The translations under genes and the position numbers were made by a program. The notes under the pieces were generated by a model that did no database searches, was not told where the DNA came from, and saw nothing but the letters and a program-made list of their open reading frames with translations. Positions 32,559 through 41,778 of a stretch of 53,844 nt of DNA are shown here, in pieces (the first letter of the stretch is position 1; every line of letters begins with the position of its first letter). Source of the stretch: Candidatus Omnitrophota bacterium (GTDB taxonomy: Bacteria; Omnitrophota; Gorgyraeia; Zapsychrales; JBDRMG01); the NCBI GenBank assembly GCA_043812495.1, contig JBDRMG010000010.1, forward strand, positions 1-53,844, read 5' to 3'.

Positions 32559-32676
32559 GTTGCATCTGAAAACAAAAAAAGGTTATGCCAATCCTACTTC
32601 GCTAAAAGGCTTTCGCGTTTAGCTTCGTAGGATTTGGCAAAATCTTTTCTCAATAAATGAAATTATTGAAGATTTT

Positions 32677-32950
32677 GCCAAGATAGCTCAGGTAGTAGAG
32701 CGCGGGACTGAAAATCCCGGCGTCCCCAGTCCTTCGATGCGATTCGGCATGATGGCGATTAACAAAGAAATTTTCCGCCGAGGTAGCTCAGGTAGTAGAG
32801 CGCGGGACTGAAAATCCCGGCGTCCCCAGTGCAAGTCTGGGCCTCGGCACATGTTATTCAACAAAAGCCATCATGCCGAATCTTACTCAGGATGGTGAGC
32901 GACCCCGCCAAAGGCGGGGGAGTCGAACCATGCAAGTCTGGGTCTTGGCA
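32677..32950 (+). pseudogene. Outer tRNA-Phe(GAA) interrupted in the T-loop by a 201-nt insert (pseudogene or spliced tRNA)
   Basis: 32677-32730 (54 nt) plus 32932-32950 (19 nt) rebuild a 73-nt cloverleaf with its own acceptor stem GCCAAGA/TCTTGGC. Confidence 0.8.
32777..32849 (+). tRNA. tRNA-Phe(GAA), intact, nested inside the interrupted copy; CCA not encoded
   Basis: Acceptor GCCGAGG/CCTCGGC, anticodon loop CTGAAAA, T arm CCCAG-TGCAAGT-CTGGG. Confidence 0.93.
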
Positions 32951-33072
32951 TTCTTCTTCGCCAAAGTGTTTTCGCCTTTGGCTTCGAAGGAATGCCACGC
33001 CGATTTTTGTCGGAACACTTTTTTGACAAAAATCGGCAGGGCACTTTTCTTTTGGTAAAGGGAGGCCTGTCT

Positions 33073-33270
33073 ATGCTTAAGACAATTGTTGTGATCTGTG
33101 CGGTCATTGTTTTTTCCATTTGCCTTTATTCTTTTCTACTCGGTAACGGCGTCTTTAAAGGCGATTTCGATAACGAAGCCCTGAGCTGGTATTTTCTAGC
33201 CAAGGGCATTTTTTGTGGGTTGTCCTTGTATCTGTCGTATCTGATCATTGAGTCGCTGAAGAAGAGGTAG
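33073..33270 (+). CDS. 65-aa small membrane protein
   Basis: GGAGG RBS; two hydrophobic segments; WYFLAKGIF. Confidence 0.65.
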   Translation: MLKTIVVICAVIVFSICLYSFLLGNGVFKGDFDNEALSWYFLAKGIFCGLSLYLSYLIIESLKKR

Positions 33271-33406
33271 GGAAGAAAAATTTGCCGTTCCGGCTTCGCT
33301 TCGAATAATTAGAAATGCCGATCCGGCTTCCCTTCAAAACTTTCGTTTGGAAGCTTCGCCGGATTCGGCACTTGATTTTTCTAAATAAATATTGTTGAAA
33401 TCAAGT

Positions 33407-33479
33407 GCCGACGTAGCTCAGTTGGTAGAGCAACGGTTTCGTAAATCGTGGGTCGGAGGTTCAACTCCTCTCGTCGGCT
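33407..33479 (+). tRNA. tRNA-Thr(CGT); CCA not encoded
   Basis: Acceptor GCCGACG/CGTCGGC, anticodon loop TTCGTAA, T loop TTCAACT. Confidence 0.95.
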
Positions 33480-33530
33480 TAAGATGTGTAATTTAAAACC
33501 CAGCCACAGTTTAAAAGTTCTTTTTAAAAG

Positions 33531-33650
33531 GAAATAGTAAAATTTTAATTTGGTGTTCCCCGAGTCCGCCACAAACTTTGGCGGACTCGGGGTCAATTCG
33601 CGCATATGATTTATACTCCCTATCGTTCGTATAAATCATGCGCTCATTGA
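33531..33650 (+). repeat. Modular double-hairpin element, copy 7
   Basis: Hairpin A nearly identical to copy 3; GGTCAATTCG-CGCAT..ATGCG-CTCATTGA directly before the MFS ATG. Confidence 0.85.
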
Positions 33651-33651
33651 A

Positions 33652-39580: not shown

Positions 39581-39621
39581 TCCACCGAGCATAGATCAAC
39601 AAATTAAAAAAGGACAAAAGA

Positions 39622-40893
39622 ATGTCGAAAATAACGAAAGTCTTCGCCAGAGAAATTCTTGATTCGCGCGGCAATCCGACCGTTGAAGTGGATCTGGCCC
39701 TGGAATCCGGTATTATAGGCCGGGCCGCCGTGCCTTCAGGCGCCTCTACAGGCGAGCATGAAGCGCTTGAATTGCGCGACAAAGACAAAAACCGTTATCT
39801 GGGAAAAGGCGTGACCAAGGCGGTCAACAATGTTAATACCACGATCGCCGAGGCTGTGACGGGTCAGGAACCCGATTTCAAAGCTCTGGACAAGATTATG
39901 ATCAGCCTGGATGGCACGGATAATAAAGGAAAACTCGGCGCCAACGCAATTCTCGGCGTGTCTTTGGCTGCGGCCAAAGCCGCAGCCCTAGAGGCCAAAG
40001 AGCCTTTATACCGCTATCTGGGCGGGGATGATGCCAAAATCCTTCCCGTTCCTTTGATGAATATCCTCAACGGAGGCATGCACGCGGATAATAGCCTGGA
40101 TATTCAGGAATTTATGATTGTTCCTTTGGGCGCGCAGACGTTTAGGGAAGCGCTGCGGATGGCGGCCGAAGTCTTTCATCACCTCAAAAGCATTCTCAAG
40201 ACTAAGAGTCTGGCCACATCCGTGGGCGACGAAGGCGGTTTTGCGCCGAATCTCGCGCACAACGAAGAGGCCATCCGTTTTATTATCGAGGCCATCGAAA
40301 AAGCCGGATACAAACCGGATAAAGACATTTTTATCGCGCTCGACAGCGCGGCCAGCTCCTTTTTTAAAGACGGAAAATATTCTTACGACGGCAATCAGAT
40401 CTCCTCAGCCGAGCTCAACGACATCTACGCGGATATGATCAAGAAATATCCGATTATTTCTCTCGAAGATGGTTTGGATGAAAATGACTGGAACGGATGG
40501 AAAGACCTGACCGCGAAAATCGGCGATAATATCCAGCTCGTGGGCGACGATATTTTTGTCACCAACGTCAGAAAGCTCTCCGAAGGTATTAAGAAAAACG
40601 TGGCCAATTCCATTTTGATCAAGGTCAACCAGATTGGCACTCTCTCGGAAACCTTGGACACGATTAATTTGGCCAGAGAAAATAAATACAAGTCTGTCAT
40701 TTCTCATCGCTCCGGCGAAACTGAAGATACCACAATAGCCCATCTGGCGGTTGCGACCGGCGTGGGCCAGATCAAGACCGGAAGCTTATCGCGCACGGAC
40801 CGAATTTGCAAATATAATGAGCTTTTGCGCATCGAAGAGGAATTAGGCTCGAAAGCGTTATATGCTGGCCCTCTCTGGGGTAAGATTTGTTAA
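39622..40893 (+). CDS. eno: Enolase
   Basis: [41 protein letters not shown]. Confidence 0.99.
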
Positions 40894-40896
40894 GTA

Positions 40897-40972
40897 GTTT
40901 GCGAGTTAACGAGTGAGCGAGTTTACGAGTTTAGTCAAATTGATAATTCGACAACTCGACAACTCGACAACT
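40897..40972. repeat. Inverted octamer arrays (CGAGTTTA-like / CAACTCGA) between eno and ftsB
   Basis: About four CGAGT-containing units mirrored by ACAACTCG units. Confidence 0.75.
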
Positions 40973-40978
40973 GATAAA

Positions 40979-41251
40979 ATGCTTAAAAACGCTCTTTGGC
41001 TCTTTACCATTGCTGTTATTCTCTTAATCGTGTTTATCCCTTCGTATAGCCGGATGCAGGATTTAAGACAGAAAAACAGCGACTACGAGGCTCAAATCGA
41101 GAAGCTTAAAGGAGATGTTGTCAAGTTAAGCGAAGAGAAAGAACGGCTTGAGAACGATCCGGTGTATTTGGAAAAGGTCGGTCGTGAGAAGATGGGCATT
41201 GGCCGGGAAGGCGAAGTGATTTATAAGATGGTGCCCGCCGACGAAGAATAG
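40979..41251 (+). CDS. ftsB: Septum formation initiator FtsB/DivIC family
   Basis: TM plus coiled coil, DPVYLEKVGREKMG..GE; eno-ftsB synteny. Confidence 0.88.
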   Translation: MLKNALWLFTIAVILLIVFIPSYSRMQDLRQKNSDYEAQIEKLKGDVVKLSEEKERLENDPVYLEKVGREKMGIGREGEVIYKMVPADEE

Positions 41252-41394
41252 CGATTAGCGGTTAGGGCATAGTTGTTCTTTTCGAGATAAATTTATTTCT
41301 GTAGGAAGCATTGCTGAGGATTGCCCGTCAATCCCGCCTTAAGGCGGGATTGACGAGGCACCCCGCGGTAGCTGCTTCCTGCGGAAGCAGCTAC

Positions 41395-41471
41395 CGTGGG
41401 GTGGAGCAGCCAGGAAGCTCGCCAGGCTCATAACCTGGAGGTCCTCAGTTCAAATCTGAGCCCCGCAACCA
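41395..41471 (+). tRNA. Initiator tRNA-fMet(CAT), CCA encoded
   Basis: C1:A72 mismatch, anticodon loop CTCATAA, T loop TTCAAAT. Confidence 0.95.
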
Positions 41472-41778
41472 AAATTAAGCCCCGCCTATAAGAAAATTGT
41501 AGGCGGGGTTAATTTTGGTTGCGTACTTTGACTTCCTTAGCTTTTAATGAGGAAAGTCAAAGTACCGCAATAGGCCCGAACTAGAGTGAGGGCCGTTAGA
41601 AATCGTTTCTTTAGGCCCCCGCCGTTGGCGGGGGCCTTTGTCGTGATTGGTTGCGCTTCTTTGCCTTCCACTATAAAGAAGAGGCAAAGAAGGCAATAGC
41701 CCCGAGTCAGAACGAGGGGCGTTAATTTCGCTTCCCAGACTTCCATTTAATAAAAAAGCCTGAGGAGTGTAGCTTTCC

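Follow-up and report, generated by a model that had tools for sequence, protein, structure and literature searches.

Transfer RNA (tRNA) genes are usually seen as stable landmarks. It is against this expectation that we read a 53,844-nucleotide (nt) stretch of DNA from a Candidatus Omnitrophota bacterium, hereafter the window, in which both the only tRNA-Phe gene and the only initiator tRNA-Met gene (fMet) are embedded in structures made of hairpins and gene stumps. At these two loci and at the start of tRNA-Thr, a short word X at the tRNA terminus is accompanied in the flank by an inverted copy, X', and, except at the fMet 5' end, by a direct copy further out, with hairpins between the words (X-hairpin-X'-hairpin-X, the zig-zag). 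What wrote these copies? Judging from the sequence, we put at about an even chance that the zig-zag is the footprint of small hairpin DNA repeats which settled on tRNA boundaries, and that it arose at the DNA level by fold-back or template-switch copying. The window, contig C10, comes from a genome (G000) of 1.94 Mb in 66 contigs, with 41 tRNAs; all window coordinates refer to the forward strand.

The ends of three tRNA genes are mirrored in their flanks

ARAGORN and Rfam place the tRNA genes of the window at 32777-32850 (Phe), 33407-33479 (Thr) and 41395-41471 (Met), with ARAGORN end calls varying by 1 nt. Besides these tRNAs, a permissive-threshold Rfam search of the two regions returned only sub-threshold, chance-like matches. 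An earlier note on this DNA had described zig-zag words at five of the six outer tRNA ends; reading the sequence on a ruler we recovered all of them to within 1 nt, and nothing was found at the sixth end, the 3' end of tRNA-Thr. On the 5' side of tRNA-Phe the words are TGCCAA (32586-32591), TTGGCA (32634-32639) and TGCCAA (32676-32681), and on its 3' side TGGCA (32946-32950), TGCCA (32993-32997) and GGGCA (33039-33043), the last matching at four of five letters. The words assigned to tRNA-Phe are thus present, but they belong to an outer, split tRNA-Phe (32677-32729 plus 32931-32950) and not to the gene called by ARAGORN.

The leader of tRNA-Thr(CGT) (33316-33411) consists of X1 TGCCGA (33316-33321), a hairpin, X' TCGGCA (33365-33370) and a second hairpin that runs into TGCCGA at the tRNA start (33406-33411), forming a perfect 14-bp stem that takes in tRNA positions 1-5. 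The fMet leader is a single hairpin (41359-41403) of two elements only, X'-hairpin-X, with arms at 41359-41379 and 41383-41403; it has 21 pairs, one of them G.T, and a 3-nt loop, is single-copy in the genome, and its 3' arm covers tRNA positions 1-9. On the other side of this gene, which is the sole initiator tRNA of the genome, has C1 opposite A72 and encodes its CCA, the trailer (41464-41570) comprises a terminator-like hairpin with the tRNA 3' end and CCA in its stem (CGCAACCA, 41464-41471), X' TTGGTTGCG (41515-41523), a second hairpin and CGCAA (41566-41570).

When the five flank regions were folded against dinucleotide shuffles, z-scores of -5.8, -7.4, -5.3, -7.3 and -9.9 were obtained, and in none of the five did any of 200 shuffles fold as well as the native sequence. 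The stems are near-perfect in Watson-Crick terms (20 of 21 pairs in the fMet leader, 14 of 14 in the Thr leader). The X'-bearing units of the window are single-copy in the genome, apart from hairpin cores with a CTTCG foot that are described below.

Inverted copies mirror the gene junction

Where a hairpin stem runs into a tRNA, the foot on the far side repeats the terminus in inverted form (X'). Such a copy could be a mirror of the gene junction or a copy of the other acceptor strand, and for fMet, Thr and an Arg-CCG gene the letters identify it as a true mirror. The X' of the fMet leader has G opposite C1, the tRNA's own partner of which is A72, and continues into positions 8-9; that of the fMet trailer mirrors CCA, letters that have no pairing partner within the tRNA; and the X' of Thr and Arg-CCG end in A, the base opposite the one preceding the tRNA rather than the discriminator. 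For tRNA-Phe in the window the two readings are indistinguishable, and among relatives the Phe 3' mirror follows the gene, including TGG where CCA is encoded and omitting it otherwise. We also considered that X1 and X' might be the 5' and 3' acceptor strands of a shrunken old tRNA, and rejected this for fMet, Thr and Arg-CCG: X' mirrors the 5' junction and not the discriminator or A72.

The fMet leader may even have kept an older state of the gene. Position 3 of the initiator tRNA (window 41397) is T, which gives a U3.G70 wobble, and is C in 29 of 29 relatives (here and below relatives are counted as separate although kin are not independent, so that such numbers overstate the case). The sole G.T of the leader stem sits opposite this T3. 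Since X' keeps G there, the mirror probably records the ancestral base.

Mirroring exceeds chance at a minority of tRNA ends

In our main control the flanks were left in place and the bodies of other tRNAs were swapped in. With n = 42 (the 41 tRNAs plus the outer split tRNA-Phe) there are 84 ends. Hairpins with a stem of at least 10 bp that cross a tRNA end by at least 5 nt occur at 4 of 42 5' ends (0.54 expected) and 2 of 42 3' ends (0.56 expected), together 6 of 84 ends versus ~1.1. At a lax stem length of at least 7 bp there was no clear excess (5', 5/42 versus 3.1; 3', 6/42 versus 3.1). The six-letter zig-zag, X' followed by X, was found at three of 42 5' ends against 0.4-0.6 and at one of 42 3' ends against 0.6, and X' alone is enriched on the 3' side only (10 versus 3.7-5.2; 5', 4 versus 3.6-4.2). 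Enrichment over random intergenic positions, on which the earlier note had staked its proposal, is there in part: 7% of tRNA ends (6/84) compare with 2.6% of open reading frame (ORF)-free positions crossed, the latter figure coming from a slightly different hairpin finder, and the excess is moderate and limited to a minority of tRNAs. Three of the mirrored tRNAs lie within the window, and the other clear cases are Arg-CCG (C66) and an Arg-CCT stump (C1). Mirroring of tRNA ends is, then, above chance, moderate in extent and confined to a minority of tRNAs. All counts include a second tRNA-Leu(GAG) called by ARAGORN (C16, 126175-126260), an atypical sequence and probably a false call.

Relatives show the pattern most clearly at the 3' end of tRNA-Phe: of 33 loci, 11 have a six-letter inverted copy no more than 130 nt away, where internal tRNA words predict 2.4, and three have the complete zig-zag, for which 0.09 would be expected. 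By eye, the hairpins at these ends vary between genera, yet every one starts within the 3' end of the tRNA; three loci (L016, L025, L026) carry tandem units that end in the Phe 3' end.

Two hairpin families dock on tRNA boundaries

Two families of hairpin repeat sit at tRNA boundaries. The CTTCG-foot hairpin is built of an outer stem and an inner hairpin, separated by a mismatched internal loop that the same five letters flank on each arm. It matches a regular expression 60 times in the genome, compared with 2191 hairpins of at least 9 bp overall, and its foot lies within 14 nt of 11 of the 42 tRNA 3' ends against 0.56 expected, the element beginning at the base directly after the discriminator, or after the encoded CCA. 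Members in the window are hairpin 1 of the Phe leader (32592-32633 by folding; family copy listed at 32596), hairpin 1 of the Thr leader and the first hairpin of the Phe trailer.

The second leader hairpin belongs to an AT-loop module (X'-hairpin-X), which aligns over 11 tRNA leaders and which we located at 13 tRNA 5' ends or stumps. An nhmmer profile of the module gave 16 matches in the whole genome, 14 at tRNA 5' ends or stumps (one of them antisense at the same site) and 1 elsewhere; three of the 14 were outside the training set and all of these abut 5' stumps (Arg-ACG, Ser-TGA, Gly-TCC). The Phe copy (32630-32682, with X' at 32634-32639) reaches with its 3' arm 5 nt into the outer tRNA-Phe and matches at E 1e-4, and the Thr copy matches weakly (E 0.29). 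The overlap into the tRNA ranges from 0 to 7 nt (Ser 0-2, Val 3, Phe 5, Thr 5, Arg 7), so that the module stops flush with the tRNA 5' end or as much as 7 nt within the gene; elsewhere it stops at a 5' stump. Alignment across the tRNA leaders thus bears out the kinship of the Phe and Thr leaders that the earlier note had proposed. It had further proposed that each leader adapts X to its own tRNA, and this holds for the Arg copies, in which both arms have changed to fit GCGCC (GGCGCAAA with TTTGCGCC); for Phe and Thr it is weakened by modules at tRNA-Ser genes, which are weighed below.

A sequence-only model of the module found 11 copies in this genome, one marginal match each in 4 of 20 relatives and none in the other 16. 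The module is thus specific to the present lineage, in which it spread recently. A structure model was discarded, as the MAFFT alignment put the stems out of register (8 weak pairs), and the sequence-only model and nhmmer were used in its place. We also set aside, as a main explanation, a role of X' (TYGGCA) as a promoter -35 box: its spacing to -10-like words is poor, the sites were not called in a promoter scan, and a strong promoter already lies upstream of tRNA-Phe.

The working tRNA-Phe gene is nested in a split older copy

That promoter is of the sigma-70 type (32531-32558; TTGACA, 16 nt, TAAAAT; 11 of 12 consensus letters, TG before the -10 hexamer), and X1 of the Phe leader begins 27 nt past its -10 hexamer. 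By reading, relatives with a recognisable promoter have one of the same kind 13-33 nt ahead of tRNA-Phe. Since the 27 nt fall inside this range, X1 is probably a stump that marks the ancestral start of tRNA-Phe. Further downstream lies the outer tRNA-Phe, positions 1-53 of which (32677-32729, acceptor strand GCCAAGA) Rfam recognises only as a partial tRNA, at 25.8 bits against a cut-off of 29. Its T-arm is interrupted by a 201-nt insert (32730-32930), and BLAST identifies positions 54-73, from T-loop to discriminator, on the far side (32931-32950). The insert holds the working gene, an intact tRNA-Phe(GAA) at 32777-32849 with acceptor strands GCCGAGG/CCTCGGC, which is the sole complete tRNA-Phe of the genome. 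In a minimum-free-energy fold its cloverleaf is retained within a 16-17-bp flanking helix (arms 32740-32756 and 32867-32882). According to BLAST, outer and inner copies are identical over positions 8-65; they differ only in two compensated acceptor pairs (GCCAAGA/TCTTGGC versus GCCGAGG/CCTCGGC). A tblastn search of the insert found no nuclease remnant. The trailer (32951-33043) consists of the CTTCG-foot hairpin (32951-32992), the inverted TGCCA, a second hairpin (~32998-33038) and the imperfect direct copy GGGCA.

A comparable tRNA-Phe nest occurs in a genome of another family (L022, G002:C52), where the insert likewise starts with TCCTTCG and the flanks are similar or homologous, and where the old gene is broken in the D-loop, not the T-arm. 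Note also that the T-loop of the window's tRNA-Phe (32777-32849) is unusual, TGCAAGT, with G replacing the conserved second T. By our own count 15 of 35 Phe genes of relatives share it, the remainder having the usual TTCRAnY.

The initiator tRNA locus and the Phe-Thr spacer

Linkage of Phe and Thr, with fMet some 8-13 kb off, is kept across the order. Hairpin 1 of the fMet trailer is an intrinsic terminator (41478-41510) with a GC-rich stem of 14 pairs and the T-tract tail AATTTTGGTT, and most relatives have a plain terminator in the same place. On the 5' side, by reading, X-hairpin-X' lies upstream of fMet in 6 of 29 relatives, and a long hairpin that includes the fMet start, as in G000, in one of 29 (G007). 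The whole trailer zig-zag has an ortholog in a genome of another family (L046 of G029). A module of terminator, GGTTGCG and hairpin at 41611-41740 has a second copy at a distance of 6 kb, at 47431-47476, where it follows a protein gene (91% over 46 nt), and an inverted word of the fMet type thus also occurs remote from any tRNA.

Between tRNA-Phe and tRNA-Thr there is a 65-codon ORF (33074-33270) with a strong GGGAGG ribosome-binding site and the look of a small membrane protein; the ORF list extends its frame to 32992. A weak promoter-like site (33282-33309, 9 of 12 letters, a consensus match only) ends 6 nt ahead of X1 of the Thr leader.

tRNA remodelling and small nucleases in the genome

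The window is not the only place where tRNA genes have been rebuilt. Fragments of the same tRNA lie within 1.5 kb of 14 of the 41 tRNAs (BLAST, E<0.01), and the listed pieces are direct in 42 of 42 cases. Of the nests that we read in detail (Asp, Cys, Thr-TGT, Val-GAC and Pro), that of Asp is the most layered: the old gene, behind its own promoter, has its T-loop split by a hairpin insert and is split again at position 70 by a cassette that contains an 84-amino-acid (aa) GIY-YIG gene, a complete tRNA-Asp and hairpins, with an 8-nt direct repeat flanking. Cys and Thr-TGT are anticodon-loop nests with similar insert ends, and two Arg genes are interrupted after an identical position, in both by the same kind of hairpin. 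On C57 (45100-45800) a second copy of tRNA-Thr(TGT) lies in four pieces, separated by three hairpin insertions, and the intact tRNA-Thr(TGT) beside this shattered copy lies in turn within the anticodon loop of a third copy. Overall, about one third of the tRNAs carry docked hairpin repeats, stumps or nests.

The earlier note had suggested an insertion mechanism that copies its target both inverted and direct. Direct and inverted copies of tRNA termini do both stand beside hairpins, but the record is lopsided: the long copies are all direct (42/42), the inverted ones are at most 9 nt, and no insertion event was caught.

Among 16 matches to the GIY-YIG domain (PF01541), 15 are small, and 10 of these lie within ~520 nt of a tRNA or transfer-messenger RNA (tmRNA) gene. 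The small proteins are single-domain and 84-123 aa long (ORFs of 84 aa on C66, 89 aa on C18, and 123 aa); they match the UPF0213 structure 1zg2 weakly (E 0.0012), and in NCBIfam only a sub-threshold group I intron endonuclease. One of the genes, on C29, sits between two copies of the tRNA-Val 3' end, and in 2 of 29 relatives a GIY-YIG gene lies behind fMet. At the tmRNA locus (C8, 10869-11670) a small GIY-YIG gene follows ~200 nt downstream, and the tag peptide reported by ARAGORN is odd-looking. The genome also has eight matches to Y1_Tnp (PF01797). Several of these domains (C2, C45, C4) are in open frames of ~330 aa, which we take to be longer than RAYTs.

Origin of the zig-zag

How, then, might the inverted copies have been written, in a lineage in which tRNA genes are split and copied anew time and again? 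If the zig-zag arose by fold-back or template-switch copying, synthesis at a hairpin, whether during insertion, replication or break repair, would write X'. Only the non-tRNA side of the hairpin would be free for overwriting, and it would be overwritten with the complement of the constrained tRNA flank. The outer direct X could come about by two routes: the next hairpin outward may repeat the copying on X', or X may be the stump of an older copy of the gene. Breaks made by tRNA-associated nucleases may be the trigger, and the sequestering of tRNA ends at the RNA level would be a side effect, partly offset by the extra X copy. The near-perfect stems, together with the recurrence of the pattern with unrelated hairpins, fit such an origin, and the single-copy fMet hairpin with its 3-nt loop fits a snap-back copy. 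Template switching is documented as a source of new perfect stems and of their extension (PMC8794818; PMC13100816).

Several results weigh against this reading. Searches for an empty or pre-insertion allele were negative, with 0 loci in two exact scans of metagenome contigs, and the 20-mer of the outer tRNA-Phe (32931-32950) occurs in 0 of 400 other Omnitrophota genomes. With 8-letter words and one mismatch allowed, the Phe 3' signal of relatives falls to 3 of 35 versus 1.1, so the mirrors are short, and the 5' sides of relatives have no clear enrichment (Phe, 3/33 versus 2.4; Thr, 5/28 versus 2.2). A genome-wide scan for hairpin pairs with overlapping arms (overlap of at least 5) returned 20 pairs, only one within 600 nt of a tRNA; the scan is blind to composite hairpins, the window's own included, and so under-counts the tRNA cases. 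Three tRNA-Ser genes are preceded by modules with TYGGCA in the X' position, a word that is no mirror of their own 5' end, GGAGAGG; some of the 5' 'mirroring' may therefore be inherited module ends rather than fresh copying, and the fit at Phe and Thr becomes roughly a one-in-four event. Within pieces of tRNA pseudogenes, inserted hairpins leave their flanks unmirrored, with duplications of only 0-2 nt, so that stems do not grow in every case. G029, a genome of another family, has the fMet trailer zig-zag by common descent, and an age of this kind fits selective retention as well as a scar. Finally, domain search and tblastn found no GIY-YIG gene or remnant at the three tRNA loci of the window (32-42 kb).

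We weighed three other explanations. One is an RNA switch, in which X' would act as an anti-acceptor that sequesters the 5' or 3' strand of the tRNA and X1 as an anti-anti-acceptor, the choice of pairing controlling RNase P, 3' processing or tRNA supply. Modelled folds make it energetically plausible: with X' in the transcript, enforcing the cloverleaf costs 4.9 (Thr), 12.6 (fMet leader) or 9.1 kcal/mol (Arg-CCG) and without it 0.0, and adding X1 cuts the Thr cost to 1.9 kcal/mol. In relatives that keep the gene upstream of fMet, fMet follows it by 15-40 nt, with no promoter predicted in the spacer, and X' is thus probably transcribed; the conservation of the trailer architecture with G029 and the presence of a leader X-hairpin-X' in 6 of 29 relatives also speak for a switch. 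A trap of 12.6 kcal/mol on the sole initiator tRNA looks harmful, however, rather than regulatory, and the trailer X' follows only after the T-tract, the expected point of termination; for a transcript that stops there the cost is 0.0. The stems hold next to no wobble pairs. Across 20 relatives the leader module is missing or at best marginal, and mirrored ends are limited to a minority of tRNAs. Two tests of G.U strand bias conflict: in RNAfold helices of at least 8 bp at tRNA flanks G.U is commoner on the sense strand (91 of 1089) than on the antisense strand (45 of 947), whereas mismatches in Watson-Crick-seeded stems have no strand bias (G.T 5, A.C 6, other 18). An RNase P RNA candidate of the genome scores 74.7 bits, below the cut-off of 100. 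On balance we consider a switch unlikely. The pattern might also be a by-product of dense spacer hairpins, of tRNA ends that are alike and self-complementary, and of terminators overlapping 3' ends, so that a few short matches would be expected with no special process at all. Phe and Thr tRNAs both start with GCCGA, the X' of the Thr leader equals the Phe 3' end plus one base, as in the Phe-Thr spacers of relatives, the excess is gone at the lax threshold with X' alone unenriched on the 5' side, and the overlapping-arm scan, which missed the composite hairpins of the window, placed one pair in 20 near a tRNA. All the same, this is very improbable in our view: against it stand the six crossings at the strict threshold where 1.1 were expected, the Phe 3' ends of relatives (11/33 versus 2.4, and 3/33 versus 0.09 for the zig-zag), mirrors that include CCA and C1, which are unavailable from any part of the tRNA itself, and stems of 21 and 25 bp, which cannot be chance.

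The third alternative starts from the docking itself, since nucleotide-exact placement on mature tRNA ends needs some means of reading an end. Here X' would be a guide or terminal repeat carried by a mobile hairpin unit: by pairing with a single-stranded tRNA end it would rebuild the stem cut by a single-stranded DNA enzyme, an Ssn-like GIY-YIG nuclease or a Y1 HUH transposase, and the element would home to tRNA ends. The genome has 15 small GIY-YIG genes (10 at tRNA or tmRNA genes) and eight Y1_Tnp matches, and the module ends before the Ser genes resemble Phe/Thr-type ends that were carried over. On the other hand, the X'-bearing units of the window are single-copy apart from the CTTCG cores, the three window loci have no nuclease gene, and X' varies by up to 7 letters between tRNAs, so that a pre-formed guide would need to change before each move. 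In IS200/IS605 elements, moreover, the guide lies between cleavage site and hairpin and not beyond the hairpin. Ssn enzymes cut single-stranded DNA beside hairpin repeats, and do so even if each half of the stem is contributed by a different strand; the same paper, Chenal 2025, makes no mention of tRNA (0 occurrences; PMC11893778). We regard a guide of this kind as doubtful, and as more doubtful still its fullest form, in which hairpin elements home to tRNA ends read as a folded single strand, the inverted copy being a DNA guide that rebuilds the GIY-YIG/Y1 cutting site; such protein-plus-DNA-guide homing would split tRNA genes yet always bring or keep a working copy.

If the zig-zags are scars of fold-back copying, they would let one read off how essential RNA genes of small-genome bacteria are remodelled by hairpin repeats and small nucleases, and would be a natural test bed for template-switch mutagenesis. 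Should the mirrored ends instead guide a nuclease or gate the folding of pre-tRNAs, a new targeting or regulatory principle would be at hand. In either case outer split tRNA genes such as that of tRNA-Phe are missed by tRNA finders and by annotation pipelines, which will mis-read such spacers.

Comparison with known systems

A search of titles and abstracts found no description of hairpin repeats at bacterial tRNA gene ends and none of GIY-YIG cassettes at bacterial tRNA genes, returning only fungal mitochondria and unrelated work. Among the nearest systems are the Ssn nucleases with their NTS/SRM repeats (Chenal et al. 2025, PMC11893778), single-domain GIY-YIG proteins of about 90-100 aa beside hairpin repeats of many copies; those of G000 are likewise single-domain, at ~84-123 aa. 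A difference is that tRNA genes do not feature in the paper, and the three loci described here have no repeat-flanked nuclease gene, though such genes are present at other tRNA loci. In template-switch mutations (Monttinen and Loytynoja 2022, PMC8794818) one event writes the reverse complement of adjacent sequence and yields long perfect stems, much as in the fMet leader. The stems of that work lie inside RNA genes, whereas here it would be the boundary of a tRNA gene that was copied, and the copy stands outside the gene.

The REP/BIME and REPIN-RAYT systems share with ours short extragenic palindromes in tens of copies and arrays in alternating orientation; genes of the Y1_Tnp type are present in G000 too (eight matches). 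Unlike them, the hairpins described here dock to the nucleotide on tRNA ends, take the tRNA terminus into the stem, and have conserved direct feet and a mismatched internal loop. RtT repeats behind E. coli tyrT (RF00391) are structured units with a direct copy of the tRNA 3' end on either side, just as the fMet trailer unit is bracketed by direct 3'-end copies (CGCAACCA ... CGCAA); they are not known to have an inverted copy of the tRNA end or a 5' counterpart. A preprint mentions rtT RNA (bioRxiv 10.1101/2024.07.17.603846). The RF00391 covariance model gave 0 matches at E<=1 in the genome and none in the two window regions. Integrases that target tRNA genes leave partial tRNA copies (attL/attR), and here, too, direct repeats of tRNA 3' parts flank inserted DNA (e.g. 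at tRNA-Val on C29). In this genome, however, the breaks fall at either terminus as well as in the D-, anticodon- and T-loops, and there are short inverted copies; the inserts are small, at 80-200 nt, and those of 84-201 nt hold no ORF the size of a tyrosine or serine recombinase. In none of REP/BIME, Ssn, RtT and att duplications does docking to the exact nucleotide at both ends of a tRNA go together with an inverted terminus copy, and hairpin repeats that sit on tRNA ends with direct and inverted copies represent a little-known way in which tRNA genes are remodelled.

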